Shown one piece after another: positions 41,630-61,116 of a DNA stretch of 64,000 bases. A program made the position numbers and the translations under genes. The notes beneath the pieces were generated by a model that was not told where the DNA came from, searched no databases, and worked only from the letters and a program-made list of their open reading frames with translations. Numbering within the stretch: the stretch's first letter is position 1; each line of letters starts with the position of its first letter. The stretch covers positions 5,795 through 69,794 of the forward strand of contig CAYWQH010000008.1 of assembly GCA_964460855.1 (NCBI GenBank). Direction: 5' to 3'. The DNA comes from an uncultured Candidatus Saccharibacteria bacterium (lineage in GTDB: Bacteria > Patescibacteriota > Saccharimonadia > Saccharimonadales > UBA10212).

Positions 41630-41706
41630 TGGTGGGCGCGGAGGGATTTGAACCCCCGACTTTCACAACGTCAATGTGACGCTCTAGCCAACTGAGCTAC
41701 GCGCCC
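41630..41706 (-). tRNA. tRNA-Val (anticodon GAC), CCA encoded
   Basis: Reverse complement gggcgcgtagctcagttggctagagcgtcacattGACgttgtgaaagtcgggggttcaaatccctccgcgcccacca. Confidence 0.9.
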
Positions 41707-41839
41707 ATAAAGGCGGGCTAGAGCTATACTAAACCACCATAAGTTAAATCGCAAATAACTCATATGCGGTATATACCAAATAGACCACAAAAACCAATAA
41801 AAAACTACTAGCATTTTAATACTAGTCTATATATACTCA

Positions 41840-42077
41840 TGTGCAAGGTAGAGTTTTGCGATGTGTTATACTTATCGCTAGTAAGCGATGAAGTGGATTC
41901 ACCAACCATTGAGCTTCGTTGGCGGTGGTAGCGTACGAAAACGCGGCCTCACGAGTGTCCTCAAAAAACGACAGGGGAAAGTCCGGTGGAACCGCCCGTG
42001 CGGCCGCACATTGTGCGACACGGGTCCGAGACGCGCCAGAAAAGACATTTGATAATGTTTTTTCTAGCGCGTTTTTT
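41840..42077 (+). promoter_or_regulatory. Structured thrS 5' leader with T-box-like motif and intrinsic terminator (attenuator); possible Thr T-box riboswitch
   Basis: tccGGTGGAACCGCC (41981-41995) resembles the T-box core GGGUGGUACCGCG. Its UGGA would pair with the U73-CCA end of the tRNA-Thr in this window. A candidate specifier ACC-A lies at 41900. An 18-bp stem (42032-42071) plus TTTTTT sits just before the thrS RBS. Confidence 0.4.
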
Positions 42078-44259: not shown

Positions 44260-45104
44260 TAGCCGGCCCCACGGCCAGCGGAAAGTCGGCAGTCGCTATG
44301 CGGCTGGCCCAACAGATGCCGGCCGAAATAATTTGCGCCGACTCGCGTACAATTTACCAGGGAATGGATATTGGAACGGCCAAACCAAGCCGGTTAGACC
44401 GGCAACTTACACCTCACTGGGGGCTGGACTTGGTAAAACCCGGGCAAAGGTTTACGGCCCACGATTTTAAAGAGTATTCTAACAAGCTGTTACCAGAGAT
44501 AGCCAGCCGGCATAATATCCCAATTATTGTTGGCGGCAGTGGTTTATATATAGATGCAGTAGCCTACAATTTTAGTTTTCGCCCAGGTTACGACCCGGAT
44601 AAACGGTCCGAATTAGAAAATAAAAGCATCGAAGAACTAACACAAATGATAAGTCAGGCATCGTTAATTATGCCGGCTAATTATAAGAACAAACGACACT
44701 TAATCAGGACTATTGAAGCGGAAGGGGCAAGTATAAAAAAATCTGCCCTGCGCGACGGATTTCATATATTCGGTATTATGCCAAGGGATGAATTAATAAA
44801 AGCAGCAATTAAAAAGCGGATAGACGCCATGTATACGAAGGGTTTTTTAGACGAAGTTAAAAGCCTGGCTGAAACGTATGGCGATGACTTTGGCGGGGTA
44901 GGCGGCATTGGATATGGCAGCGCGCTTCGGCATATTCGCGGCCAAATTTCCGAAGATCAAGCCAAGCAAGAATTTTCCAGCGGCGACTGGCAATACGCCC
45001 GCCGGCAAAAAACCTGGTTTAAAAGGAACAAAGATATAGAGTGGTTTCATTCGCCTGAACAAGCTTTTGATAAGATTCAGTTGTTCATGGCAAAACATCA
45101 ATAG
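44220..45104 (+). CDS. miaA: tRNA dimethylallyltransferase
   Basis: VIVIAGPTASGKSAVAMRLA, ICADSRTIYQGMDIGTAKPS, IIVGGSGLYI. It overlaps the upstream gene by 40 nt. Confidence 0.88.
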   Translation: MVARKSRTQQVIVIAGPTASGKSAVAMRLAQQMPAEIICADSRTIYQGMDIGTAKPSRLDRQLTPHWGLDLVKPGQRFTAHDFKEYSNKLLPEIASRHNIPIIVGGSGLYIDAVAYNFSFRPGYDPDKRSELENKSIEELTQMISQASLIMPANYKNKRHLIRTIEAEGASIKKSALRDGFHIFGIMPRDELIKAAIKKRIDAMYTKGFLDEVKSLAETYGDDFGGVGGIGYGSALRHIRGQISEDQAKQEFSSGDWQYARRQKTWFKRNKDIEWFHSPEQAFDKIQLFMAKHQ

Positions 45105-45149
45105 CTACAGCTATTAACTATCTGATACAATACTTGCAAGCAGGTACAC

Positions 45150-45764
45150 ATGATCGAGCAACTTTTTGGATCGAAAACCAGGGTAAAATTATTACAGCTT
45201 TTTTACGGTAACCCAAACCGGGCATTTTATGTGCGCGAAATTACCCGCAAGATTAACGAACAAATAAATTCGGTCCGACGTGAGCTATCCAACTTACTAA
45301 GCATTGGCATAATTACCTCTGAAACTAACAACAATAAACTCTATTACGAGGTTAACCAACAATTTGCCCATTACCAGGCCTTATCGGCCATGTTCGGCGG
45401 CAAAGCGGCAACTGTGCCTGTGTCTTCTTCGTTGAAGCCAAAACAGCAAAGCGGTGAAGAATCAGAAATCGTCAAAGATATAAAAGCATTGGGCAGGATA
45501 GACCTGGCAATATTGCTGGGCCAGTTTACCAGGGATGATTTTAGCAGCATCGACTTGCTTGTTGTAGGCGATATAAACCAAACTAAAGTTAACCATTTTA
45601 TTTCTGACCTGGAAGATAAGGAGAATAAAGAAATCCGCTATGCAATTATGTCTCCGTCCGAATATAAGTACCGGCTTCAAATTAATGACCGTTTCATTAA
45701 CAGCGTACTTTCCGCCAAAAAACAGGTCTTAATTAATGAGCAAGATTTGCAAGTAAGCCGCTAA
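45150..45764 (+). CDS. Winged-helix (ArsR/MarR-like) transcriptional regulator with an uncharacterised C-terminal domain
   Basis: FGSKTRVKLLQLFYGNPNRAFYVREITRKINEQINSVRRELSNLLSIGII. Confidence 0.55.
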   Translation: MIEQLFGSKTRVKLLQLFYGNPNRAFYVREITRKINEQINSVRRELSNLLSIGIITSETNNNKLYYEVNQQFAHYQALSAMFGGKAATVPVSSSLKPKQQSGEESEIVKDIKALGRIDLAILLGQFTRDDFSSIDLLVVGDINQTKVNHFISDLEDKENKEIRYAIMSPSEYKYRLQINDRFINSVLSAKKQVLINEQDLQVSR

Positions 45765-45777
45765 CCGGGAGAATTAG

Positions 45778-46401
45778 ATGGATATTCAATTTTATGGAGC
45801 CAACTGTTTACGTATCAGCACGAAAAAAGCTTCGATAGTAGTAGACGACAACCTGGCTGACTTGGGCGCCAAATCTATAACAAAATCAGACGATATCGCG
45901 CTGCACACCTCGCCCCATATAAAAGAAACTGAAAGCCGGTTTTTAGCGGCAATGCCAGGCGAATATGAGATATCCGGGGTGGTAATCCAAGGTATAGCCG
46001 CCAGGGCTTTTACGGATCATGAACACGAAAAATCGGCGGTTATTTTTAAAATTAACGCCGATGATAATAAACTGGTTGTGCTTGGACATATAGACCCAGG
46101 CCTATCCGAAGAACAGTTAGAGGCAATTGGTACGGTTGATATATTGATAATTCCAGTAGGTAACGGAGGCTATACCATTGGCGGTGACGGAGCTCTTAAA
46201 TTAATACGCAAGATAGAGCCAAAACTAGTAGTGCCTACCCATTACGCCGATAGCAAATTGAAATTCGAAGTACCCCAGCAGCCGCTGGATGCGGCCATAA
46301 AAGACATGGGCATGGAAATATCCGAAACTGTCCCTAGATTAAAACCAAAAACAACAGAATATACAGATGTTACCCGTTTAGTAGTTATAGAAAAGCAATA
46401 A
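45778..46401 (+). CDS. Metallo-beta-lactamase-fold hydrolase (UPF0173-like)
   Basis: 207 aa. MDIQFYGANCLRISTKKASIVVDD ... ILIIPVGNGGYTIGGDGALKLIRKIEPKLVVPTHY. Confidence 0.6.
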   Translation: MDIQFYGANCLRISTKKASIVVDDNLADLGAKSITKSDDIALHTSPHIKETESRFLAAMPGEYEISGVVIQGIAARAFTDHEHEKSAVIFKINADDNKLVVLGHIDPGLSEEQLEAIGTVDILIIPVGNGGYTIGGDGALKLIRKIEPKLVVPTHYADSKLKFEVPQQPLDAAIKDMGMEISETVPRLKPKTTEYTDVTRLVVIEKQ

Positions 46402-46590
46402 TTAAAGCAAACCGCGTTTTTTCAGCGTGCGGATAGCATGGGTGCTGAGTTGTAACTTAACTTTGCGCCCATCAACAATAACAGTTTTGGACTGCAGGTT
46501 TGGCTTCCAAACTTTTTTAGTATGGCGCTGCGAAAAACTAACATTGCTGCCATACTGCTTGCCTTTACCGGTTAAATCACACTTTTGCAT
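46402..46590 (-). CDS. rpmB: 50S ribosomal protein bL28
   Basis: MQKCDLTGKGKQYGSNVSFSQRHTKKVWKPNLQ... Confidence 0.9.
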   Translation of the reverse strand: MQKCDLTGKGKQYGSNVSFSQRHTKKVWKPNLQSKTVIVDGRKVKLQLSTHAIRTLKKRGLL

Positions 46591-46671
46591 AGTATATAAG
46601 TATAAGTTTCAAGGGTTTATTGTACGTTTTTTAAGGTGTAGCGTCAAGAGTAAACAATTACGCTATACTAA

Positions 46672-47307
46672 ATGTTGATGAGCGATACCGTCTATACTTT
46701 AATATTAGCTATTCCCGCAATTCTTGTGGCAATAACCATTCATGAAGCGATGCATGCTGTCGTTAGTGATAGGCTAGGTGATGATACTGCGCGGTTGGAC
46801 GGCCGGATTACATTAAACCCAATCCATCATATTGATCCGTTTGGAAGTGTTTTGTTGCCCCTAATTCTAATTTTATTGCACTTACCAGTAATCGGTGCTG
46901 CCAAACCGGTTCAGATAAACAAACTTCGCTTAAAATATGATGATTTCGGCGCGGCGATTGTTGCCGCGGCCGGCCCGGCGTCCAATCTGGTTTTAGCTTT
47001 ATTGGGTGCCGTACTTTTTAGAGTAATGAACGTTCACAGCGGGGCTGCGGCTGATTTTCTTACCCTTTTTGTATCTATTAATGTCGGTTTCTTCGTGTTT
47101 AACCTTATTCCGTTCCCGCCATTAGATGGTTCGCGGATTTTATATGCTTTAGCTCCCGAGCCGGTGCAGGAATTCATGGATATGATTGAAGCCTACGGGA
47201 TAACAGCCTTTTTAATATTTTTCATTCTTTTTTACCAATTCTTCAGCCCGGTTATCGGCAATATTATTAATCACATTTTGAATGTTTTACTGCCAGTTAA
47301 CCTCTAA
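46672..47307 (+). CDS. Site-2 protease family (M50) membrane metalloprotease
   Basis: HExxH at ITIHEAMHAV, several TM helices, and a downstream NLIPFPPLDGSRIL motif. Confidence 0.8.
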   Translation: MLMSDTVYTLILAIPAILVAITIHEAMHAVVSDRLGDDTARLDGRITLNPIHHIDPFGSVLLPLILILLHLPVIGAAKPVQINKLRLKYDDFGAAIVAAAGPASNLVLALLGAVLFRVMNVHSGAAADFLTLFVSINVGFFVFNLIPFPPLDGSRILYALAPEPVQEFMDMIEAYGITAFLIFFILFYQFFSPVIGNIINHILNVLLPVNL

Positions 47308-47568
47308 GCTATAATACAAGTGTCGGTCTTGGTACGATTGATTTTCTGAATACATAAATTGAGGGAGTCCAATATGCGTAGCCGCTTGTGGGCAGCACGT
47401 GCGGACACCCACTTTGCTAACAAGCAGAGTGAATCAAGTGCCAAACCGACCCTTGTTATATTTAGAGCATTTCTAATTCTTTGCGTCGCATGAGAATATA
47501 ACGATAGGGAAAAAGAGCAGCGAGCTTGGTCCCGAAGTTTACGAGGGACTCGGCAATGCCGACGAGCG

Positions 47569-47598
47569 ATGAGAAAAAACCGTCAGGTTTTGTCTCAT
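47569..47598 (+). terminator. Hairpin with short T-run immediately upstream of tRNA-Pro
   Basis: atgagaaaaaacc-gtca-ggttttgtctcat (13-bp stem, 1 mismatch), then ttctcttt. Confidence 0.35.
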
Positions 47599-47606
47599 TT
47601 CTCTTT

Positions 47607-47683
47607 CGGGGATTGGCGCAGTTGGCTAGCGCGTACGGCTGGGGGCCGTGAGGTCGCAGGTTCAAGTCCTGTATCCCCGACCA
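47607..47683 (+). tRNA. tRNA-Pro (anticodon GGG), CCA encoded
   Basis: cggggattggcgcagttggctagcgcgtacggctGGGggccgtgaggtcgcaggttcaagtcctgtatccccgacca. Confidence 0.9.
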
Positions 47684-47708
47684 ATTAACACAGATCGGCA
47701 GCAAATAA

Positions 47709-48425
47709 ATGTGGCAGGAAATAGACAACCAACTTTACAAAAAATTTCATTTTTCTAATTATCAAATGGCGGTTAAATTTTTAAGTCAAATGGCGGTTGC
47801 CGCTGAAAAAGCAAACCATCATCCGGTCATGCGCCTTAGCTATGACAGCGTTGAAGTTTGGTTTACGACGCATGACCAAAATAATAAAGTTACTAGTCTG
47901 GACCATGAAATGTCCAAAGCAGCGGATACTCTATACAGTAATAATAATTCCCAAAATGATACAAAACTGGCAGCTTCAGTTGCTAATAAGACAACATCAA
48001 AAGATATTAAATTTACAGAGGTAAAAATCTATACTGACGGCGGATCCAGGGGCAATCCCGGGCCTTCGGCAGCAGCTTTTGTTGTAGAGGATATGGATGG
48101 AAACGTTGTAGAAAAATCAGGTGACTATATTGGCATTACTACCAATAACCAAGCCGAATACCAGGCCCTTAAAAAGGCTTTGGACCGGGCTATTAGCTTA
48201 GGCGTAAAAAAGGTTCATATATATATGGATAGCCTGCTTGTGGTTAACCAAATTAATGGATTATTCAAAGTTAAGAACCGTGACTTGTGGCCAATATATG
48301 AAAAAGTAAATGAGCTTAAAGGCAAATTTTCGGTAATTACATTCCAGCAAGTGCCGCGACAGTTAAATAAAATTGCCGATGCTGAAGTAAACCGGATTTT
48401 AGACGAGCAAGTAAAAAGTGTATAA
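47709..48425 (+). CDS. Fusion protein: pterin-4a-carbinolamine dehydratase (PCD/DCoH)-like domain + RNase H (type 1) domain
   Basis: The N-terminus has FLSQMAVAAEKANHHPVMRLSYDSVEVWFTTHD (HHP signature). After a low-complexity linker comes KIYTDGGSRGNPGPSAAAFVV, NNQAEYQALKKAL, IYMDSLLVVNQ, NKIADAEVN (DEDD residues). Confidence 0.75.
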   Translation: MWQEIDNQLYKKFHFSNYQMAVKFLSQMAVAAEKANHHPVMRLSYDSVEVWFTTHDQNNKVTSLDHEMSKAADTLYSNNNSQNDTKLAASVANKTTSKDIKFTEVKIYTDGGSRGNPGPSAAAFVVEDMDGNVVEKSGDYIGITTNNQAEYQALKKALDRAISLGVKKVHIYMDSLLVVNQINGLFKVKNRDLWPIYEKVNELKGKFSVITFQQVPRQLNKIADAEVNRILDEQVKSV

Positions 48426-48431
48426 TATAGC

Positions 48432-48784
48432 GCGCAGGATTATTGGCTGATCGCCCCGCTTTAGCGGGGAGGAAAGTCCGGGCAGCTAAGGGCAGGACAG
48501 TTGCTAACGGCAACCGGGGGTAACCCTAGGGAAAGTGCCACAGAAACAATACAACCAGGTAGAAATACCGGGAAATGGTGAAACGAGTGGGGTAAAAGCC
48601 CACAGTTCCTCACGGTGACGTCAGGAAAAGGTAAACCCTGTCTGCTGCAAGGGATGGACATGCCGCTTTAAAACGGATGGTGCGCCCGCCAAGTCCATCA
48701 AATATCCGCTTGAGCTACATGGCAACATGAGGTCTAGATAGATGATTGGCTAAAACAGAACCCGGCTTACGGATAATCCCGCAC
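48432..48784 (+). ncRNA. rnpB: RNase P RNA (bacterial type A)
   Basis: CR-I GAGGAAAGTCCGGGC (48468-), GGTAAACCC, and CR-V ACAGAACCCGGCTTA (48755-). P1 pairs gcaggattat with ataatcccgc. End coordinates are accurate to about 5 nt. Confidence 0.9.
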
Positions 48785-48786
48785 AT

Positions 48787-48815
48787 AAAAATACCGCTTA
48801 AAAGCGGTATTTTTA
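48787..48815. terminator. Bidirectional intrinsic terminator between rnpB and rplT
   Basis: aaaa-ataccgc-ttaaaa-gcggtat-ttttat has an A-run on one side and a T-run on the other. Confidence 0.75.
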
Positions 48816-48831
48816 TACTTTAAAATTAAAT

Positions 48832-49176
48832 TTATTTTTTAACTGTAGATACGATTTCTTTAAAAGCTTGAGGCTCATTGGTAGCCAGTTCGCTCAAAAT
48901 TTTGCGATTCAAAGAAACGCCGGACTGTTTCAGTTGGGAGATTAACCGGCTGTAAGTTGTACCATTCAGGCGGGCAGCAGCATTTATGCGGGCATTCCAT
49001 AAGCTGCGGAAAGACCGCTTACGATTACGGCGGTCGCGATAGGCGAACTGTAACGAACGGGTGGCGGCCTGCTTGCCGCGCCTAATACTGCTGCGGTTCG
49101 GCCGGCTCATTCCTTTAGTGGTTCTGCGGATTTTATTATGACGGCGTGAAGTTGCTACGCCTCGCTTAACTCTCAC
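48832..49176 (-). CDS. rplT: 50S ribosomal protein bL20
   Basis: MRVKRGVATSRRHNKIRRTTKG...FAYRDRRNRKRSFRSLWNARINAAAR. Confidence 0.92.
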   Translation of the reverse strand: MRVKRGVATSRRHNKIRRTTKGMSRPNRSSIRRGKQAATRSLQFAYRDRRNRKRSFRSLWNARINAAARLNGTTYSRLISQLKQSGVSLNRKILSELATNEPQAFKEIVSTVKK

Positions 49177-49179
49177 TTT

Positions 49180-49374
49180 TTATACTCCTAATTTCATCTT
49201 CAAATTTTTAGCTTGCTGGCCGGAAATGGTTTCTACACCGGCGTATTTACGTTTACGGGCAGCACTTTTCTTTTGCAGAAAATGAGTGCCTGTAGCATGG
49301 CGCCTCATAACTTTACCAGTTTTTGTAATGGTAATTTTTTTCTTAACGCTTCTATGTGGTTTTAACTTTGGCAT
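49180..49374 (-). CDS. rpmI: 50S ribosomal protein bL35
   Basis: MPKLKPHRSVKKKITITKTGKVMRRHATGTHFLQKKS. Confidence 0.9.
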   Translation of the reverse strand: MPKLKPHRSVKKKITITKTGKVMRRHATGTHFLQKKSAARKRKYAGVETISGQQAKNLKMKLGV

Positions 49375-49879
49375 TGTTGCTCCTAATAACGAAATTTAGT
49401 TGTTTTCCAGTAAGTTGGGGCGGTTGGTCGGCGATAACAGTATCTCCCAACATCTGCTGGACTTTATCAGCTAAGGTAAAGCCAATTTCTTTATGGGCCA
49501 GTTCTCGGCCGCGGTAAACAATTGTTACACGTACTTTATGGCCGGCTTCCAGGAAGGCGTTGATCTTTTTAATCTTAACCCCGAGGTCGTGCTCGCCGAT
49601 TTTTAAACCCATTCTTATTTGCTTAAGGTCCAGTTGTTTGCTGCTCTTCCGGTTTTTTTGAAGTTGTTTGGTGCGCTGGTAGTTATACTTGCCCCAATTA
49701 ACCATTTTGACGACCGGAGGTTTAGCATCTGGCGAAACTTCAACTAAATCTAACCCGGCTTCCTCGGCGGCACTTATGGCTTCGGCGCGTGTCAGCACAC
49801 CTAATTGTTTGCCGTCGTCGGTGATAACTCTAAGTTGAGGCGCCTGAATTGCATCATTCAGGCGTGGTAGTTTGCTAAT
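49352..49879 (-). CDS. infC: Translation initiation factor IF-3, probable AUU start
   Basis: INDAIQAPQLRVITDDGKQLGVL...LDLVEVSPDAKPPVVKMVNWGKYNY. SD aggag (49887-91) lies 7 nt upstream of ATT at 49879-77. The track instead extends the ORF to a TTG at 49924. It overlaps rpmI by 23 nt. Confidence 0.85.
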   Translation of the reverse strand: MSKLPRLNDAIQAPQLRVITDDGKQLGVLTRAEAISAAEEAGLDLVEVSPDAKPPVVKMVNWGKYNYQRTKQLQKNRKSSKQLDLKQIRMGLKIGEHDLGVKIKKINAFLEAGHKVRVTIVYRGRELAHKEIGFTLADKVQQMLGDTVIADQPPQLTGKQLNFVIRSNNAKVKTT

Positions 49880-49944
49880 ACTTTTACTCCTTGCACTTTT
49901 TAGATCATAACAGATAAGCGCCAAAAGTTCAATAATGCTATTAG

Positions 49945-51450
49945 TTACTTTTCGCGGTACTGCAATGCTTCGCCAATATGGGCTTGGTTTATAGCCTCGG
50001 ACAGCTCCAAATCAGCGATGGTTCGGGCAACTTTGATCGTTTTCATGTAGGCCCTGGCCGACATTTTAAGCCGGGCTGCTGCTGCATCCAAGTATTCCTT
50101 GGCCTCGCTGCTTAAATGTGCAAGTTGTTTTATCTCGTCATTTGATATTGTCGAGTTAAAGCGTTTACATCCAAACCGGCTATTTTGCATATCTTCGGCG
50201 CGGCGTACCATGCTCATGTAACTATCATTAACGCTAGTAGGCTGGTTTTGCAGTAGCTTGTCATGCTCGACTTCTTCCACCGCTACATGTATATCTATGC
50301 GGTCTTTAATCGGTCCTGAAAGCCGAGCCTGGTATGCCCTGATTGCCGCTGCACTACAGCTGCATTCTTTTAGCGAACCGTAATATCCGCAGGGGCACGA
50401 ATTCTGTGTTGCAATTAGCATGAAGTTGGCAGGGTACTCTACGCTGCTTTTGATACGAGTTACGGAAATACGTCTTTCTTCTAGCGGTTGGCGCAGCGCT
50501 TCGATGCTGGATCGGTTGAATTCCGGCAGTTCATCCAGAAATAGAACGCCGCAATGTGCCAGGCTTATTTCGCCGGGCTTTGGCGAAGCGCTGCCCCCGG
50601 TTAAAGAGATGGTACTGGCGCTATGGTGGGGCGCCCTGAAAGGAGGATTTGTAACTATCGAATTATAATTTGCATTTCCGAGGCTATGAAGATGGGTAAC
50701 TTCTATCATCTCTTGCTTGTCTAAAGGGGGCAATAAGCTGCGCAGGGCTTTCGCCAGCATAGTCTTACCCGTGCCGGGTGGCCCGTATAACAAAATATTG
50801 TGCCGGCCGGCTGCAGCGATTATAAGGGCCCTTTTAGCAAGTTCCTGGCCGGCAATGGATGCCAGCGTAACTTCGCCAGGCACTCTTACGCCTTTAGCCG
50901 CAGCACTAAACTCGCTAGAATGGACGTTTTTTGCGGGCTTTAAGCCAGTAAGATCCAAATATATATCGTTTAAGCTATTAAAAGTCGTAATATTAATATC
51001 AGGAACTAAGCTAGCTTGCGTTAAATTATCATAAGGAATATAAAAGTCTTTTATACCAAATTGTTTAGCAGCCAGTAACTTGCCTATAATTCCTCGTATC
51101 GGCCTGATCTTTCCATCTAGGCTCAACTCGCCTAAGAAGATTTTATTAACGGTCCGGCCGGCTTCTACTTGTTTGGACGCTAATAAAATACTTACTGCCA
51201 TAGCCAGATCCATGGAAGTACCTTCTTTTGGAATATCACCCGGAGCCAAATTAATAACTATTCTTTTGCGCGGAAAGTTAAGACCCGAAGCATTAAAGCT
51301 GGCCCTTAGCCGGTCTTTGGCTTCTCCAACCGCGCGCGAAGCTATGCCAATAATATTAACGCTGGGCAAGCCCGAAGTAATATGGCACTCAACATCAATT
51401 AAACTGCCACCATCCAAGTTATCAACGATACTTTTTATGCCTTTTGACAT
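49945..51450 (-). CDS. comM: YifB/ComM-family Mg-chelatase-like AAA+ ATPase
   Basis: Lon-like N-terminal domain (ECHITSGLPSVNIIGIASRAVGEAKDRL), Walker A LLYGPPGTGKTMLAKAL, Walker B GVLFLDELPEF. Confidence 0.88.
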   Translation of the reverse strand: MSKGIKSIVDNLDGGSLIDVECHITSGLPSVNIIGIASRAVGEAKDRLRASFNASGLNFPRKRIVINLAPGDIPKEGTSMDLAMAVSILLASKQVEAGRTVNKIFLGELSLDGKIRPIRGIIGKLLAAKQFGIKDFYIPYDNLTQASLVPDINITTFNSLNDIYLDLTGLKPAKNVHSSEFSAAAKGVRVPGEVTLASIAGQELAKRALIIAAAGRHNILLYGPPGTGKTMLAKALRSLLPPLDKQEMIEVTHLHSLGNANYNSIVTNPPFRAPHHSASTISLTGGSASPKPGEISLAHCGVLFLDELPEFNRSSIEALRQPLEERRISVTRIKSSVEYPANFMLIATQNSCPCGYYGSLKECSCSAAAIRAYQARLSGPIKDRIDIHVAVEEVEHDKLLQNQPTSVNDSYMSMVRRAEDMQNSRFGCKRFNSTISNDEIKQLAHLSSEAKEYLDAAAARLKMSARAYMKTIKVARTIADLELSEAINQAHIGEALQYREK

Positions 51451-51487
51451 ATTTAATTAATTATTGCACTTTATCCCAACAATTAAA

Positions 51488-51519
51488 ATACCCCGGTTTG
51501 TCCGGGGTATTTTGTTTTT
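51488..51519. terminator. Strong hairpin with flanking A/T runs in the comM upstream region
   Basis: ataccccgg-tttgt-ccggggtat then tttgtttttg. It is preceded by aattaaa, so it is terminator-like on both strands. Confidence 0.5.
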
Positions 51520-51576
51520 GTTAGGGTGTGTATTGAGGTGTTACGACGTATCTTTGTTTGTGTACTTCTTGGCTGG

Positions 51577-51603
51577 AACAACGGCTTGCGAGAAGCCGTT
51601 GTT
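51577..51603 (+). terminator. Second hairpin of a three-hairpin cluster
   Basis: aacaacggctt-gcgag-aagccgttgtt (11-bp stem). A T-rich stretch, ggtttttgttttg, lies 8 nt downstream. Confidence 0.35.
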
Positions 51604-52524
51604 ACGATACGGTTTTTGTTTTGAGCACTTTTTTTATTCAAGTGCCGTTTTCATCTTATAAATTAGTCTTTTTACTGTCAATACGATTATGTTAAAAAGC
51701 ATAAAAAAGCTGTGTATAACTATCAATCGGAATAATTAATTTAATAAGGGCAGGGGGATGTTGCATAGGCAAATTGCTGCGAATTCTGGGTATATTTAGA
51801 ACTTAGCCGTTTATATGACAATGGGATAATACTAAATTAAACGGCAGTTCATATATATAAGTAATTGGATAATTTAGTTAACTTGCAGCCCAATCATATA
51901 AATTAATGACTGTTAGCAGAACTTGGCTATAGCCCGAAAATATATGTAACATCTGATGTTTTTTAGGGCATTGCTCCGGCAGCCTCTATTTAGGTTAAAG
52001 ATATTTTTACTAGCAAATGTAGATGCGACTAGATAACTTAGGTACAAAGAGTATGCGTGTATGAATGTTTATAGTCGACAGCCCGTAGGCGCAAACAAAC
52101 ATAATAATGAACGTACATCGCAAAACATTTTTCTATATTCCATTGCAAACATTTTAAAGCCGATAAATAAATGCTAGATGGATAAAAACAACCGCTATTT
52201 AATTAAGCAATTTAAGACTAAAGGCTGTATACAACATATAAATATTAAGCCGATAGGCTGTTAACAATTTGTTCAGAATAATGATTTGATAATAATATAT
52301 CGAATTTACAACTTGCCTAAATCCACCGCTTTTATTGTTGACTAATTATGGCACAGTATATTTAAGCAACTGTTACGTTGTAAATTAACCGTCTAATGAT
52401 ATATGGCCCAAAGCACAATAATTAACTAAACACTTTACATTACTTACAACGTAAATATATTTAGTGGGGCATGATTATAACAACACTTATAAGATATAGG
52501 TAGTAAATAACACAACTATAATTG

Positions 52525-52553
52525 TTGACTAATAGTGAATCAGGTGCTAATTT
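52525..52553 (+). promoter_or_regulatory. Candidate promoter of the 52714-56514 operon (TTGACT, 17 nt, TGcTAATTT)
   Basis: -35 TTGACT (52525-30), 17-nt spacer, extended -10 tgcTAATTT (52545-53). The 13-mer attgttgactaat also occurs at 52334-46. Confidence 0.4.
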
Positions 52554-52713
52554 AAGTGCATGAAGCCAAAATAAATAAATGTCTTCTTTACAGCATAGCT
52601 GGATAACGCTCTCTAACGAGAGCGGTCAGTCTGCCAAACGGCGGTAAGCGCTAAATAGTTTTAACAAATAGGGCGCATTTACCGCCTTGGCACCAAGCTT
52701 ATAAAATGGAAAT

Positions 52714-53061
52714 ATGGACGACACAAAGCCCACTATAAATAAAAAGCCAGCCGCAATTGCGGTTGGTTGTTTTTTAATTTTGTTGCTAATAACTTTTGCT
52801 TACAACCCGAATAATAACGTCACCGCGATAATAATTTTTTTTCCACTTATGTTTGGACTATTACTAAGCAGCTCAATATATGTCGTCAGCCATTTTAAGC
52901 CGCTCGGGCACCGCAGGCTTATATATAAATTGGCAGTCGTAGAGGGCGCGGCGATATTAGCGTTAATGTTTTATTCTGTAAAATCACTACATTTAATAGA
53001 CGTTACAGTTATAATATTAATAACGTTTGGACTGATCTTTTATATAGACAGACGTTTTTAG
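52714..53061 (+). CDS. Small polytopic membrane protein
   Basis: 115 aa with about 4 hydrophobic helices. First gene after the 1.25-kb AT-rich gap. Confidence 0.55.
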   Translation: MDDTKPTINKKPAAIAVGCFLILLLITFAYNPNNNVTAIIIFFPLMFGLLLSSSIYVVSHFKPLGHRRLIYKLAVVEGAAILALMFYSVKSLHLIDVTVIILITFGLIFYIDRRF

Positions 53062-53101
53062 GCAACTTTTATCACCAGTAAGTATTTGGGCAGGGTATAA
53101 T

Positions 53102-53539
53102 TTGCATATGAATCCTAGTAGTAGCGAAGCTCAACATAGCTTGGAGCTGCCAAATCCAGAGCAGGGCCAAGAAGTAGACAATAATAAGATAGAAGCTGCC
53201 GGGGCTGCAGCTGAAGCCGGCAAGGCCGAAGCTGCTAACCAGGGTTCTCCGTCTGCAACTTCCGCACCAGCTACCGATCAGGCATCAGCCGATGCGTCGA
53301 GCTTAGCATTACCAGCAGCGCCAATAAAAGATAAATCATCCACTTCTAGCAAGGCTTCTTCGGTAGCTGATGATGTCGATCTGATAGAAAAAGAATGGGT
53401 CGACCGGGCTAAACATATAGTTGAAAAAACTAAAGACGACCCATATTTGCAGAATAAGGAAATGAATAAAGCTAAAGCCGAATATATCGAGACACGGTGG
53501 AATAAGAAAATAAAATTAGCTGATGAACAGCCGAGGTAA
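53102..53539 (+). CDS. Hypothetical protein with disordered Ala/Ser-rich N-terminus and conserved-looking helical C-terminus
   Basis: 145 aa (TTG 53102 or ATG 53108). The stop overlaps the next start (taatg), indicating translational coupling to the ATPase. Confidence 0.5.
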   Translation: MHMNPSSSEAQHSLELPNPEQGQEVDNNKIEAAGAAAEAGKAEAANQGSPSATSAPATDQASADASSLALPAAPIKDKSSTSSKASSVADDVDLIEKEWVDRAKHIVEKTKDDPYLQNKEMNKAKAEYIETRWNKKIKLADEQPR

Positions 53540-56514
53540 TGAACTTTCTTGTTTTTATATTAATTACGTTTCTGGCTATCGCTGTTATTGGCGTTAGCAT
53601 TGCCTACTTTTATATAAGGAAAATTAACCGGGAACAGAAAAACTATGAGCGGGGCTTAAAAATGGTGCCCTTACTTATACATTTGCCACCCCCAAGTGAC
53701 GACACTGACTCGCAGGGACGCGACAAAAGGGATGTAGTAGATGAAAACGTTTCGAAAGCCCAGATCTTATATAATATCCTGTCCAGTACTTTTAAGAAGG
53801 GTTTTAAGTCCAAATATTACGGTCAGCGGCATATTGCTTTTGAAATAGTCGCCCAAAAAGGTTTTGTTCAGTTTTATACAGCCGTACCTGTTACGTTATT
53901 AGATGTTGTACAACAAGCTATCCTAAGCGCCTATCCTTCGGCTCGGCTGGAAGAAGTAGCAGAGCACAATGTATTTAGCCCTGTGGGGCGCATAAGCGGT
54001 ACTCTAGGCGGCGAACTAGTACTAAAAGAAAACTACGCCTATCCGATCGCTACTTTCCAAGATTTAAAGCGCGATGCCATGCAATCGTTGTTAAGTGCCT
54101 TGTCGACACTCGAAAAAGACGATGGGGTAGGCATACAGATATTGATCAGGCCGGCAGACCCTGGCTGGCGTAAGCGGGCCACTTCGGTGAGTGATAAAAA
54201 ACGTAAAGGCGGCAAAAATTCCAGTTCATTACCAGCTGCCATTGGTGTATTCGGCCAGGCTGTTACCGCTTTAAACAAGCCGCCGGAAAGCAAGAATGAT
54301 AAGGATAGCACTCCGGATAAGCCTTTATCTTCGCTGGACCAATCGATAGTTGATGCTATAGACGATAAAACCAGGCATCCCGGATACGAAGTATTGATAA
54401 GGGTTGTAGCTTCGTCAAACCTTACCCAGCGCTCACAGAGCATTCTTAATAATATTATCGCAACGTTTTCTTTGTTTGACGCTCCGGGTAGAAACGGCTT
54501 TAAGTTCATCCCGGCCAAAGACATAGACAGCTTCGTAACGGCTTACATATTAAGGTTCTTCCCCCAGGAAAATAAAAATACGATCTTAAACAGCGTGGAA
54601 CTTTCAACTCTATTCCATTTTCCGGATCAGAGTAATATCCCGACGACCCAGCTTGAGAGGCAAGCTTCCAAGCAAGTTGACGGGCCCCGAAATATTTCTG
54701 AAGACGGCTTGCTGTTGGGATATAACGTTTTTAGGGGTGCTAAGAAGGCCATAAGGCTAAGCCTTAACGACCGCCGGCGGCATATGTACGTTGTTGGCCA
54801 AACGGGTACGGGTAAATCGACCTTCCTGGAAAACCTGGCGCTGCAGGATATGTTAGAAGGCCGGGGTTTCGCGTTCGTCGACCCCCATGGTGATACCGTA
54901 GAAAAGCTTATGGCTATGGTTCCTAAAGAGAGAACAGAAGATGTAATTTATTTTTCGCCGGCCGATATGGAATACCCGATGGGCTTAAATATGTTTGAGT
55001 TCCACAGCCCTGAGCAAAAGGACTTTTTAATCCAAGAAGCTATAAATATGCTCTACAAGCTGTACGACCCGCAGCACCAGGGAATTATCGGTCCAAGGTA
55101 TGAGCACTGGTTCAGGAACGCTGCACTTACACTGATGGCTGATCCCGAAGGATCGACTTTTATCGATATCCCTAATGTATTCCAGGATTCGAAGTATTTA
55201 AAGCAGAAACTACAATACGTAAAAGACCAGACCGTCCTGGACTTTTGGAATAAAGAGATGGCCCAAACCAGCGACTTCCATAAAAGTGAAGTTATGGGTT
55301 GGTTTGTCAGCAAGTTCGGCGCTTTCCGCAGCAACGAAATGATGCGTAATATTATCGGCCAAACGAAAAGTTCATACAATTTACGCACTATCATGGACGA
55401 AGGCAAAATACTTTTCGTTAACTTAAGCAAAGGACGGACTGGCGAACTAAATTCTAAACTTTTGGGCATGATTTTCGTAATGAAAATACAAGCCGCCGCT
55501 ATGAGCCGGGCCAGCATAACCGAAGAAGAGCGAAACGATTTTTGTTTGTATGTAGACGAGTTCCAGAACTTCTCTACCGACTCTATCGCCGATATCTTAA
55601 GCGAGGCCAGGAAATACCGACTTAATCTCGCAGTAGCCAACCAGTTCACCACCCAATTAACTGATCAAATCCGCGATGCAGTTTTTGGAAATGTTGGTAC
55701 TATCGTATCCCATCGCGTAGGTACGGCAGACGCTGAAGCTTTAGCCAAAGTTTTCCAGCCGATATTTGATATAGAAGATTTGCAGCGCATACCTAATGCA
55801 AATAGTATCGTACGAATGTTAATTGGCGGTGTACCGACGCAGCCGTTTAGCATGGCGAACTTACCACCGCTAGGCAAACCGAATATGCAGCTAGCAGATG
55901 CCTTAAAACAGCTCTCTGCAGCCAAATACGGCCGCCCTAAGGCTGTCGTAGAAGCTGAAATATTTAAGCGACTGGCCGTTAAAGAAGACGCTACCAAAGC
56001 AGCAGGGGCCGCATTTGACGCGTTTAACGTTCCTGGCAGGCCGGCACCTACAATACCAGGATCACCCACAACCCCCAGTGCCCCCGGATCAGGCTCGTCT
56101 TTTCTGGACGAATGGCTGGCAAAGCGTAAAGCCCAGCTCAAACAGCAGGAATCCATTTATGCCACACCGTACGGCACTAAAAGTAACGAAGATCCGGCAG
56201 CTGAATTAAAAGGAGTGGCTAACGCCCAGGTTGAACCACCTACCGTTAAAAAAGTCGATCCAATTGAACAACCACCAGCTAAAGTGGAAGCTAAACCAGC
56301 CGGATTAGTGGAAAGGGCTGAGACTGCCCAACCAACTACTGCCAATAAGCCGGCAAAAATGGCGTTGCCGGCAATCGACTTGAGTAAAACTGAGCACGAA
56401 GTCCATTTAGGCTCGGCGCCTACTGACGAAGTGCAAACGATCTATATCGATAAAGACGGCAATTTAGTTTACGACGAAGGCGTGGCGCCGGCTGCCCCAA
56501 ACCCCCAAAAATAG
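53539..56514 (+). CDS. Membrane-anchored VirD4/TraD-like (type IV coupling protein-like) P-loop NTPase
   Basis: One N-terminal TM helix. Walker A YVVGQTGTGKSTFLENL, FVDPHGD, Walker B LYVDEFQNF, ARKYRLNLAVANQFTTQL, and a Pro/Ala-rich C-terminal tail. Confidence 0.65.
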   Translation: MNFLVFILITFLAIAVIGVSIAYFYIRKINREQKNYERGLKMVPLLIHLPPPSDDTDSQGRDKRDVVDENVSKAQILYNILSSTFKKGFKSKYYGQRHIAFEIVAQKGFVQFYTAVPVTLLDVVQQAILSAYPSARLEEVAEHNVFSPVGRISGTLGGELVLKENYAYPIATFQDLKRDAMQSLLSALSTLEKDDGVGIQILIRPADPGWRKRATSVSDKKRKGGKNSSSLPAAIGVFGQAVTALNKPPESKNDKDSTPDKPLSSLDQSIVDAIDDKTRHPGYEVLIRVVASSNLTQRSQSILNNIIATFSLFDAPGRNGFKFIPAKDIDSFVTAYILRFFPQENKNTILNSVELSTLFHFPDQSNIPTTQLERQASKQVDGPRNISEDGLLLGYNVFRGAKKAIRLSLNDRRRHMYVVGQTGTGKSTFLENLALQDMLEGRGFAFVDPHGDTVEKLMAMVPKERTEDVIYFSPADMEYPMGLNMFEFHSPEQKDFLIQEAINMLYKLYDPQHQGIIGPRYEHWFRNAALTLMADPEGSTFIDIPNVFQDSKYLKQKLQYVKDQTVLDFWNKEMAQTSDFHKSEVMGWFVSKFGAFRSNEMMRNIIGQTKSSYNLRTIMDEGKILFVNLSKGRTGELNSKLLGMIFVMKIQAAAMSRASITEEERNDFCLYVDEFQNFSTDSIADILSEARKYRLNLAVANQFTTQLTDQIRDAVFGNVGTIVSHRVGTADAEALAKVFQPIFDIEDLQRIPNANSIVRMLIGGVPTQPFSMANLPPLGKPNMQLADALKQLSAAKYGRPKAVVEAEIFKRLAVKEDATKAAGAAFDAFNVPGRPAPTIPGSPTTPSAPGSGSSFLDEWLAKRKAQLKQQESIYATPYGTKSNEDPAAELKGVANAQVEPPTVKKVDPIEQPPAKVEAKPAGLVERAETAQPTTANKPAKMALPAIDLSKTEHEVHLGSAPTDEVQTIYIDKDGNLVYDEGVAPAAPNPQK

Positions 56515-56515
56515 A

Positions 56516-57085
56516 TTACTGGCTCTGCGGCTTTATATAATGCCAAATAAATTCCATAGCCAAGCCGATAATAAACCCGCCCAGTAAAAACATCAGGTAC
56601 CACGATGTATTGTAGGTGTAACCGAAGTGCTTTGTAATGTAAAAATATGCTGACGTACCCAATAAGGCCATCAAGCCGCCGCCCAATAAACCGGAGGGCC
56701 GGGCAACTGTTTTTGAACTTACTTCGCTAATACTATCTATTACCGGTTGATGGATAACCGAACTAAACATTTTTTGGTAGGCCGGCAAGCGCCGCCTGAT
56801 CCTTGACATGTTCCTTTGATAAGCCGAATCTTTCAACTCCCTTGTTATATAAGTATGTCCGGTAGCAGGCTCTTTTTCTCCATGGACATGATGTTCTTTG
56901 CCGCTGACCGCCTCTTTTTTGGCGGCATGGTGTAATTGTTCTATTTGATGCTGGGCATTATGCTCACGCTCCACTTTTGCAGCGTGTTGCAGCTTTTCGG
57001 CCAATAATTCCTGTGAACGGTGGTCGTTATGTGTTTCGGCCGGCGCGTGCCTCTCGTGGTGATTGTGGTGGATGGTTTCGCTCAT
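56516..57085 (-). CDS. His-rich membrane protein
   Basis: The N-terminal ~70 aa are rich in His (HHNHHERH.., EHHVHGEK). Two C-terminal TM helices. The stop lies 1 nt from the convergent ATPase stop. Confidence 0.55.
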   Translation of the reverse strand: MSETIHHNHHERHAPAETHNDHRSQELLAEKLQHAAKVEREHNAQHQIEQLHHAAKKEAVSGKEHHVHGEKEPATGHTYITRELKDSAYQRNMSRIRRRLPAYQKMFSSVIHQPVIDSISEVSSKTVARPSGLLGGGLMALLGTSAYFYITKHFGYTYNTSWYLMFLLGGFIIGLAMEFIWHYIKPQSQ

Positions 57086-57095
57086 ATTATAAATC

Positions 57096-58991
57096 CTAAC
57101 TGTCAGAACCAGCTTGGTCCGCCTTAATAATATCTAGCTCTTTTGCGATTAACCGGCTTCGGGCAAAGAAGTAGCCCGCAGCCAGGGCAACAATGAAACC
57201 GCACATTACTCCTAAGCCGGGCCCGGTATTGGGTAATTCATTGGAGGCAGTTTCTATATTCTTAACTAGCGGGCAGCTAACACTCATCTTTACTTCATTA
57301 CCATATAAGTTCGAAATCGTGCAGTTGTAGTCCGCTGAAACATTAGAGGGCCGGTTAGTGCTGGGAATTACTGCCTTAACTTTAACGGTTATTACTTTAA
57401 TGTCACTGCTGTTACCTTTGATAACGGCTGTATTCCACCTTAGGAACTTATCGCTTGTTAATGTAATACCTTGTTTCTCCAAGCTGGAAGGGTCAACTAT
57501 ATCGGCGTATTGCAAAACATTGCCAAAGAAGTCCTCGCCTTTATAGTTTTTAAAATCGGATGAAGTAACATTTTGGGTATTAAGGGTAAACTTCAGAACG
57601 TCATTGTTTTTAACTTTGGTACCGGAAGCATTCGACAAGTTCTCGGTCACATTAGCTACCGATTTGCTTTGAACTAATCGGGGCTCTTCACTGACATTCA
57701 GGCTTACAGGGCAGTTAACGGTATTAAAAAGTTTGCCGGTTGGTGATTTTAGCTGCGCGGTAACGTTTATCGTATGATTACCGGGCTTAAAGTTATTAAA
57801 TGTCTTAGTGTGGGTTGTTTGGCCAGTTTTATCCGAAGTGTCTAGCTTGGAGTTATTATCAATGCCATAGTTATATGCCTGGACCATAGCCCCGCCGCTT
57901 ACAAAAGTTTCTGTTTTTACACTAAAGTCATTATTTGATTTTGGCAGGAAAGCGCTGGAAGAAACACAATATCCGCTGGCAGTTACAGGCGGCGGGGTGC
58001 AAGCGGCCCCGGAACAAGGCGGATTTATAACAACAACGCAAGGTTGCTCAGAATCAGAAGAGCCAGTTTCCTTCGAACTTACTGTGGCCTGGTTGCAAAT
58101 TACAGTACCGCTTTTGAGCCGTGGTTTAACCTTAACGGTTAATATCCGGGAGCGGTTTATAGTTGTAAAGCCTAAGCTGTCCTTCTGGATAGTTAAAATT
58201 CCGCCGTTATTGCTGCTGATGCCTTCCAGGCTTACATAATCAAAGTTGGCGGCTACCCGGTCGGTCAGCTTAAAATTAGTGGCCAATGAATCTTCAACAG
58301 TATTACGAAACTCCAACCTGAATTTAACGGTATCGCCGGGCTTTACCTTATTAGGGGTTAACAGTGTTTTATGTACGGTAAGCTTCGGTTTTGGAGGCTT
58401 GGGCAAGTAAGGGCCGTGAAACGTAGCGTTACCGCAATCCTGAAGTATCCAAAAACCTACGCCAAACTGGTTAACTCCATGAAATGCTTTATAACTGCTG
58501 GACGGGCCCGTATCCCAGGCATGCAGCGGTCGTTGGTAAACGTTTAAGCTGCCGGATATTTTTACCGTACGCTCTCCCCAGTGGGTACTGCTTATACCAA
58601 AATCCGACAAAGGCAAACGTCCAATGCTCCACCAATCTGAACTGGTTGAAACAACTGTAGAGTTAGGGCTTTGGCCCGGTATATTGGCAATATTCTGACG
58701 GGTTATACCAAACTTACCGTATATTTCCCGGACATTGCCGGTGTTTGCGTCCCAGGCCCTTAGGATACTTTGCTTATTGCTAATGCCATCCAGTATATGA
58801 TTGGGCGATGCCGCCAGGGATTTTTGGGCGGGGTAGAGGGCGGCTAAAGTTTGTACTACCAAGGCCATCGCTATCAAAATAAAACCTAGTCGTCTAACGC
58901 CGGCTTCTTGGCGCAGCCGTTTACTATAAAAATTAACCTGGTGGATTAACCCCGGGTTATAGGGTAAGTTTGCGAGTAACTTTTTGAACAT
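57096..58991 (-). CDS. LPXTG-anchored surface protein with repeated Ig/DUF11-like beta domains
   Basis: N-terminal TM/signal (RRLGFILIAMALVVQTLAAL). C-terminal sorting signal LPNTG (57222-57236), then a hydrophobic stretch, then ARSR. Confidence 0.75.
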   Translation of the reverse strand: MFKKLLANLPYNPGLIHQVNFYSKRLRQEAGVRRLGFILIAMALVVQTLAALYPAQKSLAASPNHILDGISNKQSILRAWDANTGNVREIYGKFGITRQNIANIPGQSPNSTVVSTSSDWWSIGRLPLSDFGISSTHWGERTVKISGSLNVYQRPLHAWDTGPSSSYKAFHGVNQFGVGFWILQDCGNATFHGPYLPKPPKPKLTVHKTLLTPNKVKPGDTVKFRLEFRNTVEDSLATNFKLTDRVAANFDYVSLEGISSNNGGILTIQKDSLGFTTINRSRILTVKVKPRLKSGTVICNQATVSSKETGSSDSEQPCVVVINPPCSGAACTPPPVTASGYCVSSSAFLPKSNNDFSVKTETFVSGGAMVQAYNYGIDNNSKLDTSDKTGQTTHTKTFNNFKPGNHTINVTAQLKSPTGKLFNTVNCPVSLNVSEEPRLVQSKSVANVTENLSNASGTKVKNNDVLKFTLNTQNVTSSDFKNYKGEDFFGNVLQYADIVDPSSLEKQGITLTSDKFLRWNTAVIKGNSSDIKVITVKVKAVIPSTNRPSNVSADYNCTISNLYGNEVKMSVSCPLVKNIETASNELPNTGPGLGVMCGFIVALAAGYFFARSRLIAKELDIIKADQAGSDS

Positions 58992-59133
58992 ACGTACCTT
59001 TATTTTTTGTATGCGATATGCTAATGCTATTTAAACATAAAAAAATGTGTTCATACAAGGGTATGAGCATTGTTATTTGAGGCCATTTCTTCTATAATAT
59101 AAGGAAGAGTAATAGCTAATTTATTTTAATTGA

Positions 59134-61113
<1,980 letters not shown>

Positions 61114-61116
61114 ATT

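Follow-up and report, generated by a model that had tools for sequence, protein, structure and literature searches.

Protein-sequestering and seed-type small RNAs (sRNAs) are represented by CrcZ, with its A-rich CA motifs, and by RsaE/RoxS, with their C-rich motifs. In the DnaA regulons of Bacillus subtilis and Escherichia coli, promoters are regulated by DnaA boxes, of which each promoter usually has several. The layout of another cis-acting element, the L20 leader of B. subtilis, was reportedly given by Choonee et al. in 2007. Almost nothing is known about gene regulation in Saccharibacteria and other Patescibacteria, and we know of no Hfq, Crc or comparable partner in Saccharibacteria. Here, we analyze a window of 64,000 nucleotides (nt) from an uncultured Candidatus Saccharibacteria bacterium (GenBank assembly GCA_964460855.1, contig CAYWQH010000008.1, positions 5,795 to 69,794), in which a gene-free interval of 1263 nt (window positions 51451-52713) separates comM from a three-gene ATPase operon. 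We find it reasonably probable that this gap consists of two independent conserved noncoding RNAs, a minus-strand sRNA (element A) and a plus-strand leader (element B), which face outward and are split by disposable AT-rich DNA.

We hold with high confidence that both elements are conserved structured RNAs on these strands, and with moderate confidence that they act in the ways proposed below. Both are apparently undescribed, and would be new families of known kinds. A recent review mentions riboswitches only as engineerable tools for these bacteria (PMC11665869).

Conservation at the two ends of a gene-free interval

The interval is bounded by comM (49945-51450, minus strand), the product of which is a YifB/ComM Mg-chelatase-like AAA ATPase, and by an open reading frame (ORF) of 115 amino acids (52714-53061, plus strand). 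It is by far the largest gap in the window: the next one measures 376 nt, the median is 27 nt, and only 9 of the 69 gaps in a map of greedily chosen ORFs and RNA genes exceed 150 nt. The G+C content is 33.4% versus 47.9% window-wide, and the sole ORF of at least 60 amino acids is a TTG-started frame of 65 amino acids (51464-51661) that crosses hairpins. A first-pass annotation, made from the sequence alone, had correctly described an outsized, AT-rich and ORF-poor gap among spacers mostly shorter than 150 nt. Among its suggestions was a regulatory hub with unannotated sRNAs, and this is borne out by the comparative data, in which both gap ends appear as conserved transcription units for structured RNAs. 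As a separate matter of composition, the G+C content of the window falls from about 50% to about 42-48% beyond 45 kb (45000-64000), despite the presence there of the core genes infC, gyrB, and gyrA.

For comparison, 80 metagenome loci (designated L followed by a number) were fetched around homologues of the 991-amino-acid protein encoded by the third gene of the operon, together with five from closer relatives, and about 1.07-1.1 Mb were searched. The nearest ComM relative in a collection of species-representative genomes, that of a Candidatus Saccharibacteria metagenome-assembled genome, is only 51% identical. The 991-amino-acid protein has 7688 homologues, the best 120 of which share 64-81% identity with it. 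The order infC, comM, gap, three-gene operon, two minus-strand genes (189 and 631 amino acids), gyrB, gyrA recurs in about 30 loci, with 16S rRNA after gyrB-gyrA in several of them. Because of this recurrence, we regard the infC-to-gyrA block as core chromosome and not as an island; the comparison for presence or absence that had been proposed for the region thus finds the whole block kept in about 30 Saccharibacteria loci.

Within the gap, blastn against the relatives detects conservation only at 51574-51721 and 52617-52697. In the closest relative, L163, identity reaches 81% for the ATPase, 93% for the first block, and 72% for the second, but the middle part of about 790 nt is unalignable. 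The AT-rich bulk on which the first-pass annotation had concentrated is therefore the least conserved part of the gap, even with respect to the closest relative. From about 35 related Saccharibacteria loci we drew a three-part layout of sRNA, spacer, and leader.

The spacer (51722-52510) has 31% G+C, no conserved sequence, and no credible ORF. Measured from a DnaA box beside element A to the -35 hexamer of the plus-strand promoter (both described below), it ranges from 55 to 804 nt in close relatives, the window version being the longest and among the most AT-rich; in L086, L089, L090, and L092 it spans just 55-130 nt. Long spacers have no detectable similarity to each other, and the window spacer gave no match to any fetched locus (blastn, tblastx) or to plasmids and phages (blastn). 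The spacers of distant Saccharibacteria are likewise AT-rich, 0.3-1.4 kb long, without conserved ORFs, and conserved at their ends only. A direct repeat of 23 nt (52324-52346 and 52511-52533, plus strand) is 19/23 identical and contains the 13-mer ATTGTTGACTAAT, which had been noted at 52334 and 52521 and is indeed found there; its upstream copy duplicates the -35 region of the plus-strand promoter and lacks a good -10 at the right spacing. When the gap is shuffled by mononucleotides, 28 of 1000 shuffles contain an exact 13-mer repeat, so the 13-mer is only modestly beyond chance. The 23-nt repeat hints at a local duplication of the promoter region as one source of the spacer. Being unalignable, non-coding, and free of matches, the roughly 800 nt between the two promoters would be fast-evolving filler, derived in part from such duplication and having no sequence-specific function.

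It is highly improbable that the gap instead holds unannotated small protein genes or a decayed pseudogene. Several ORFs of 30-65 amino acids do exist, and a gene of 57 amino acids is called in the L163 spacer. However, tblastx matches among the spacers are confined to the promoter and leader ends and occur in every frame of both strands, which indicates conservation of nucleotides rather than of coding sequence; no coding signature emerged for conserved small ORFs filling the gap. Moreover, the window spacer has no translated match, and the 65-amino-acid ORF consists of RNA hairpins.

A probable minus-strand small RNA and its DnaA box

On the comM side of the gap, the minus strand carries a predicted sigma-70-type promoter (51653-51681) with a -35 hexamer TTGACA (51681-51676), a spacing of 17 nt, and a -10 hexamer TAAGAT (51658-51653). 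The position of the -10 predicts a start near 51646. Downstream lie a 5' hairpin, hp2 (51624-51646; GCACUU...AAGUGC), with the conserved loop UGAAUAAAAAAA; a single-stranded A-rich motif, CAAAACAAAAAC (51611-51623; CAAAA(A)CAAAAA in its alignment form), whose consensus is CAAAAACAAAAA; and an 11-bp hairpin, hp1 (51577-51603), with the loop CUCGC, invariant in the minus-strand reading. These are followed by an unstructured CA-rich stretch (51514-51576; 48% A, 32% C, poor in G and U) and by an intrinsic terminator (51478-51513; stem 51485-51496/51502-51513, U-tract about 51478-51489). Transcription from this promoter would produce an sRNA of about 170 nt, running from 51646 to about 51478.

The spacing between hp2 and the promoter, in the form TTGAC-N17-TAnnAT, is constant throughout the 17 close loci and also in the distant ones, and the window copy of the promoter was listed by a promoter scan as well. 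In alignment A5 (17 sequences, 15 pairs), 98.4% of the cells are paired, versus 27-48% when the partners are slid. Compensatory changes occur in six pairs; within hp1 they affect 5 of the 11 pairs, and its G-U pairs fit the minus strand only. In all, 11 G-U cells of the alignment would be A-C mismatches on the plus strand, which identifies element A as a minus-strand RNA; a plus-strand or DNA-cruciform reading of hp1 and hp2 was rejected on these wobble cells. Folded as minus-strand RNA, the three comM-side hairpins reach z = -5.8 versus shuffles. Model R2, built on this element, recognizes a single copy in each locus, invariably located between comM and the operon and on the minus strand; 18 matches score 80-96 bits, and a further 16, in distant loci, score 30-50 bits.

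The CA-rich stretch contains CACCUC (at plus-strand positions 51535-51540) and repeated CAAAAC-like units; in relatives it keeps a similar composition, with ACUCCA or CCUCC motifs. The terminator hairpin (51485-51513) has 12 perfect pairs with an A-run on one side and a T-run on the other, so that the scan listed it as a plus-strand terminator while its reverse complement also precedes a U-run. This agrees with the first-pass annotation, whose three stem-loops on the comM side are all present, the first being terminator-like on both strands. In 17 related loci, the equivalent position is taken by a hairpin with a U-run whose sequence differs from locus to locus.

The arrangement in distant Saccharibacteria bears on whether element A is a gene of its own. 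In 10 distant loci, a plus-strand transfer-messenger RNA (tmRNA) gene, recognized by Rfam (L096, 6104-6501; L104, 4937-5331; also L098, L099, L103, and L106-L110), lies between comM and element A. The two are convergent and usually 50-75 nt apart, or 260 nt in one case. The U-run of the distant loci directly follows hp1, which there is the terminator, and the unit is an RNA of about 95 nt comprising a 5' hairpin, CAAAAAUAAA, a conserved AAACUCCAC, and the hp1 terminator. With a tmRNA gene in between, element A is no comM leader in these loci, and we conclude that its ancestral form was a small RNA gene in its own right. The window clade no longer has a tmRNA gene on the comM side, hp1 has become internal there, and a CA-rich tail with a second terminator has been added; the loop of this second terminator is the same ACUCGCAA in L091, L092, and L111.

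A purely cis-acting leader or attenuator of comM-infC-rpmI-rplT, for instance a feedback site for L20 or IF3, would account for the window clade without an sRNA. There, element A lies directly upstream of comM in the same direction, its terminator ending 34 nt before the comM ATG at 51450 (34-60 nt across the clade), and the scan found no promoter between the terminator and this ATG. Where comM is missing (L083, L091, L097), element A precedes infC, and the succession of promoter, leader, terminator, and infC mirrors that said to hold for the B. subtilis L20 leader. The distant layout, with its opposite tmRNA gene and hp1 as terminator, nevertheless points to an autonomous ancestral element, and the L20 leader family (RF00558) matches neither the window, with hits admitted up to E = 10, nor the orthologous regions, with a limit of E = 1. 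We consider this explanation unlikely. In short, element A has its own predicted promoter and terminator, and it is independent of a coding gene in the 10 distant loci and ambiguous in this respect in the window clade, where the earlier alternative of an orphan sRNA or attenuators upstream of comM has become a conserved minus-strand unit.

We therefore favor an sRNA gene and propose that its conserved unpaired sequences bind a protein or pair with other RNAs, with read-through of the terminator probably feeding comM-infC-rpmI-rplT in the window clade. No conserved complementary site was seen for pairing of the sRNA with tmRNA or of the hp1 loop with the leader. ARAGORN, which recovered only 2 of the 9 Rfam-found tmRNA genes on which it was tried, detected no tmRNA gene in the 64 kb. 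Three independent short-read (Logan) contigs (L001, L002, L163) end exactly inside the hp1 palindrome, so that this region tends to split in assemblies.

Upstream of the sRNA lies a conserved 12-mer, CTGTGTATAACT (51710-51721), with a perfect DnaA box, TTATACACA (51711-51719, minus strand), about 30 nt upstream of the -35. It is the only perfect TTATNCACA in the window, and it corrects the earlier statement that all DnaA-like sites of the gap carry at least 1-2 mismatches. CTGTG[T/C]ATAACT stands at the equivalent position in 17 of 18 close loci, and TTATCCACA in L094; among relatives only the N of TTATNCACA varies, being A, G, or C. This region has 0.74 perfect boxes per kb, the rest of the loci 0.015 per kb. 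These features point to a site for a regulatory protein, most simply DnaA as a transcription factor, which may modulate the sRNA promoter through this single upstream box.

A DnaA box in a long AT-rich gap near gyrB-gyrA and the rRNA operon also invites the interpretation, already raised in the first-pass annotation, that the gap is the chromosomal origin of replication (oriC), with an AT-rich unwinding region and DnaA boxes. The length of the gap, unusual for this genome, the perfect conservation of the box, the 4-7 boxes with at most one mismatch in the corresponding region of L091, L163, and L085, and the position of gyrB, gyrA, and 16S rRNA downstream on the plus strand are all compatible with it. 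However, boxes with at most one mismatch are not enriched in the gap (1 versus 2.2 expected), and the window has its single box. In 29 of 30 loci, the flanks both have a positive GC skew (means +0.074 and +0.064) and do not differ in it (Wilcoxon p = 0.21), and the skew of the window changes sign near 40 kb rather than at 51-52 kb. In addition, the spacer shrinks to 55-130 nt in four relatives, and the roughly 48 kb of genes on the left, being mostly on the plus strand, would be head-on to replication starting from the gap. No dnaA was found by tblastn in the window or in the 85 loci (with an approximate query sequence), and neither a conserved unwinding element nor a DnaA-trio motif was seen in the AT-rich region (31-33% G+C). 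An origin in the gap is thus very improbable; in a compact genome, a DnaA box within a long AT-rich gap does not suffice to call one.

As to the skew itself, it passes from negative to positive at 39000-42000, with a cumulative minimum at about 39-41 kb, around nrdR (39548-39982), tgt (40286-41365), and tRNA-Val (41630-41706). This change could mark the true origin, about 11 kb to the left of the gap, with the reservation that most genes to the left of it lie on the plus strand.

A probable plus-strand leader of the ATPase operon

At the other end of the gap, the second copy of the 23-nt repeat is part of a predicted promoter on the plus strand (52511-52553) with a -35 hexamer TTGACT (52525-52530), a spacing of 17 nt, and an extended -10, TGcTAATTT (-10 hexamer 52548-52553). 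This promoter, proposed at the outset, aligns with TTGAC[A/T]-N17-TAnnnT in most of 11 relatives, although a simple scanner did not list it. Transcription from 52525-52553 would give a leader of about 150-200 nt.

The 5' part of the leader (52560-52606) forms a hairpin with the A-rich loop CCAAAAUAAAUAAAUG, a degenerate form of the GUAAGU-CAAAAACAAAAA-ACUUAC hairpin of the relatives. It is followed by the structured core (52607-52696; model R1, 77.8 bits, E = 2e-16), which begins with P1 (52607-52624), CGCUC...GAGCG with a variable hairpin between, and the invariant linker GUCAGUC (52625-52631). An outer helix, GCC at 52633-35 paired with GGC at 52689-91, then encloses P2 (52640-52686), which is interrupted by an internal loop and capped by a terminal loop rich in A and U; across relatives, the consensus of P2 is GGCGGUAAGCGCU ... 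GAGCGSAUUUACCGCC. P1 and P2 correspond to the two hairpins given in the first-pass annotation, and its structured leader is conserved across relatives in both fold and promoter.

In alignment A3 (16 sequences, 27 pairs), 92.9% of the cells are paired, versus 33-45% when slid, and 14 pairs (42 cells) show compensatory changes, values that 0 of 500 shuffles reach. The G-U pairs fit the plus strand, and the window leader folds with z = -3.9. Invariant stretches include GGUCAGUC, UAA against AUUU, and AUAGU in the terminal loop. A search of 1.07 Mb with model R1 gave exactly one match in each locus; all matches read in the direction of the operon and precede the ATPase gene by about 1 kb. Distant loci, whose P2 contains a large insertion, score weakly for that reason but retain GCYC...GRGC-GGUCAGU-GCC...GGC as well as the UAAUAGU loop. 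The element thus combines a covarying fold, including invariant unpaired positions, with a constant same-direction place in one 5' untranslated region, as riboswitch-type leaders do.

The downstream part varies. In the window, a terminator-like hairpin with a T-run (52745-52776) follows 49 nt after the core, and a comparable hairpin lies 3' of the core in about 14 of 20 close relatives. The ATG of the window ORF is 18 nt past the core, and in L086 only 22 nt separate the terminator from the ATG, which leaves no space for another promoter. Distant loci have no such terminator, and their ORF begins 35-45 nt past the core. The true start of the 115-amino-acid ORF is uncertain. The region of its nominal start (52714-52783) lies upstream of the hairpin at 52745-52768, which would then be coding, and the equivalent hairpin precedes the ATG in L086 and others. 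The product resembles that of L084 from residue 24 onward, and the TTG codons at 52780 and 52783 are in frame.

The first gene of the operon encodes this 115-amino-acid protein, with four predicted membrane helices and no record in an exact-sequence look-up; the second encodes a protein of 145 amino acids without a family match; and the third encodes the 991-amino-acid ATPase, composed of DUF8128 and a P-loop domain and distantly related to the coupling proteins TrwB, TraD, and VirD4. Only about 29% of the ORFs in the window have a Shine-Dalgarno-like upstream sequence, and many ORFs carry a hexamer resembling TATAAT 7-12 nt ahead of the start codon (e.g., 56516-57085, 13140, 46672, and 40286), which suggests that leaderless mRNAs are common in this genome. 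Against that background, the long structured leader of the ATPase operon stands out.

It is quite unlikely that element B is a stand-alone sRNA that acts in trans and merely neighbors the operon. Such a role would suit an element with its own promoter, a terminator of its own in most close loci, and a 5' module (hairpin and CAAAAACAAAAA) in common with the minus-strand sRNA, for which no consistent antiterminator was found. Nevertheless, in every locus it immediately precedes the operon and shares its orientation, the distances in L086 and in the window exclude a second promoter for want of space, and the distant loci lack the terminator and start their ORF close to the core. We propose that the core acts in cis on the downstream operon, most likely as a riboswitch-like or protein-binding attenuator. 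The choice would be between stopping at the hairpin at 52745-52776, or masking a nearby start codon, and reading on.

The kinship of the ATPase with VirD4 had also led to the suggestion that the gap is an origin of transfer (oriT), or the remnant of a decayed plasmid or integrative element, tied to a VirD4-like operon. We find this hardly credible, despite the distant relationship of the 991-amino-acid protein to TrwB, TraD, and VirD4 and despite the inverted repeats of the AT-rich region. The core synteny from infC-comM to gyrB-gyrA is kept in about 30 loci, no relaxase or integrase domain is present in the neighboring ORFs, and the homologues of the 991-amino-acid protein are 62-81% identical in a very large number of Saccharibacteria. 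The inverted repeats show covariation as RNA, each on a defined strand, and the spacer is without a plasmid or phage match. In Patescibacteria, coupling-protein homologues usually lie apart from virB4; that of S. epibionticum is reportedly far from virB4 and non-essential, and the role of the family in the epibiotic lifestyle is unsettled (PMC12102498). The S. epibionticum homologue is a candidate orthologue of the 991-amino-acid protein of the window and no more than a candidate.

A shared motif, points of doubt and comparison with known systems

The two RNAs have one sequence in common. CAAAAACAAAAA or its one-base-shorter form has 44 matches in about 1.1 Mb of related loci, nearly all in the two RNAs and, in close and distant loci alike, 10-35 nt from the predicted 5' ends. 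This distribution suggests one factor for both RNAs, which would be an RNA-binding protein or a protein that uses the motif as a DNA operator just past both start sites. We also entertain, tentatively and as a rather doubtful extension, that element B is a new riboswitch class for a small-molecule or ion ligand, gating the DUF8128 ATPase operon throughout Saccharibacteria, and that it forms with the sRNA one class-wide module, with a common factor acting on CAAAAACAAAAA and a DnaA link to the replication state in the window clade. If this were true, the Candidate Phyla Radiation would gain one of its first described native circuits of RNA regulation.

Several observations weigh against the preferred explanation of two RNA units with the roles proposed. 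Every comparison sequence comes from one class, the close set is phylogenetically narrow, and the effective sequence number is about 2 in both models. Promoter-like sites are not enriched in the region (7 versus 7.0 expected), so the promoter calls rest on conservation alone. For element A, a single exception, the L095 hairpin read by eye, favors the opposite strand. Its sequence is unusually conserved for a base-pairing sRNA, and the resemblance of its CCUC/CUCC to an anti-Shine-Dalgarno sequence argues only weakly for targeting of ribosome-binding sites, since few genes have a Shine-Dalgarno sequence. With just 34 nt from terminator to comM ATG in the window, roles as a cis attenuator and in trans are inseparable in its clade; comM may also have a weak promoter of its own (AATAAT at -15 to -10), which is conceivable because many genes look leaderless. 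The DnaA box could be the site of another factor, and it is absent from most distant loci. For element B, 4 of 20 close loci are without the leader terminator, and that of the window sits inside the nominal ORF. A search for an antiterminator (RNAduplex, terminator 5' arm versus core, with a shuffled-arm control) gave no consistent partner; the best partner differs by locus and is often no better than a shuffled arm.

The gap nonetheless yields two concrete, testable RNA elements, conserved across Saccharibacteria and without an Rfam match: a highly conserved sRNA beside tmRNA or comM-infC, and a leader preceding the gene of an ATPase that is very strongly conserved and akin to type IV coupling proteins. 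Since cultivable, naturally transformable strains exist, both are open to direct deletion or mutation, and models R1 and R2 can annotate them in thousands of metagenome-assembled genomes.

Other features of the window were recorded in passing. A class A RNase P RNA (48435-48785, plus strand, 243 bits) adjoins rplT-rpmI-infC, a position kept in relatives. A single ORF (47709-48425, plus strand) fuses a pterin-4a-carbinolamine dehydratase domain to RNase H (RVT_3); L165 has the same three domains, and the L164 homologue, cut by the locus end, shows RNase H and RVT_3 only. In L092, positions 2319-2461 beside tRNA-Pro gave a weak 6S RNA match (33 bits, below the gathering threshold), whose window counterpart (about 47308-47606) has no Rfam call. 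Two ORFs of about 1000 amino acids each (13720-16746 and 17394-20507) have no Pfam match, and directly downstream of both lies a type IV pilus cluster (20669-27523; PilM, two T2SSE ATPases, a PilC-like T2SSF).

Searches for known RNA families, one of the checks proposed at the outset, placed neither element. With Rfam 15, nothing in the gap reached a gathering threshold (4227 families unmatched, among them L20 leader, 6S, SRP, tmRNA, and the known riboswitches); a limit of E = 10 added only scattered sub-threshold hits, the best being rimP at 27.9 bits versus a threshold of 47, and the orthologous regions of L086, L092, L003, and L104 gave nothing at E up to 1. Resemblances to boxA (CGCUCUUUA), the RfaH ops site (GGCGGTAG), domain IV of signal recognition particle RNA (GGUCAGGUCC), and the 3' end of tmRNA (GCUCCACCA) were dismissed, as the positions involved covary, are paired, or differ in distant loci. 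A limited search of the literature on noncoding RNA, riboswitches, and Hfq in Saccharibacteria and Patescibacteria found no description of either RNA.

Compared with bacterial oriC, the gap is similarly AT-rich and intergenic and has a DnaA box, but it lacks a box cluster, a change of skew sign, and a nearby dnaA, and it is reduced to 55-130 nt in some relatives. The single perfect TTATNCACA, at a fixed place upstream of a conserved promoter and varying only at N, resembles the DnaA-regulated promoters, from which it differs in having one box and in being absent from most distant Saccharibacteria. Element A resembles the Firmicute L20 leader (RF00558) in that promoter, structured leader, and terminator lie upstream of the infC-rpmI-rplT operon in the window clade, and directly so in loci without comM. 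Unlike that leader, it is not recognized by the covariance model, it is separated from the operon by comM in most loci, and in distant loci it ends before the operon, with a tmRNA gene between.

As an sRNA, element A is unrelated in sequence to CrcZ and RsaE/RoxS, far more conserved class-wide, and found in a genome that appears to make low use of Shine-Dalgarno sequences; it is like them in its promoter, terminator, 5' hairpin, G-poor and CA-rich unpaired region, and CUCC/CCUC motifs. Element B differs from described riboswitches and structured leaders in that it has no Rfam match and no conserved antiterminator could be shown for it, and its downstream genes give no metabolic clue. It is like them in being a covarying multi-helix fold with invariant unpaired nucleotides in the 5' untranslated region of one operon, and in the variation by lineage of its downstream part, which holds either a terminator or a start codon beside the fold.

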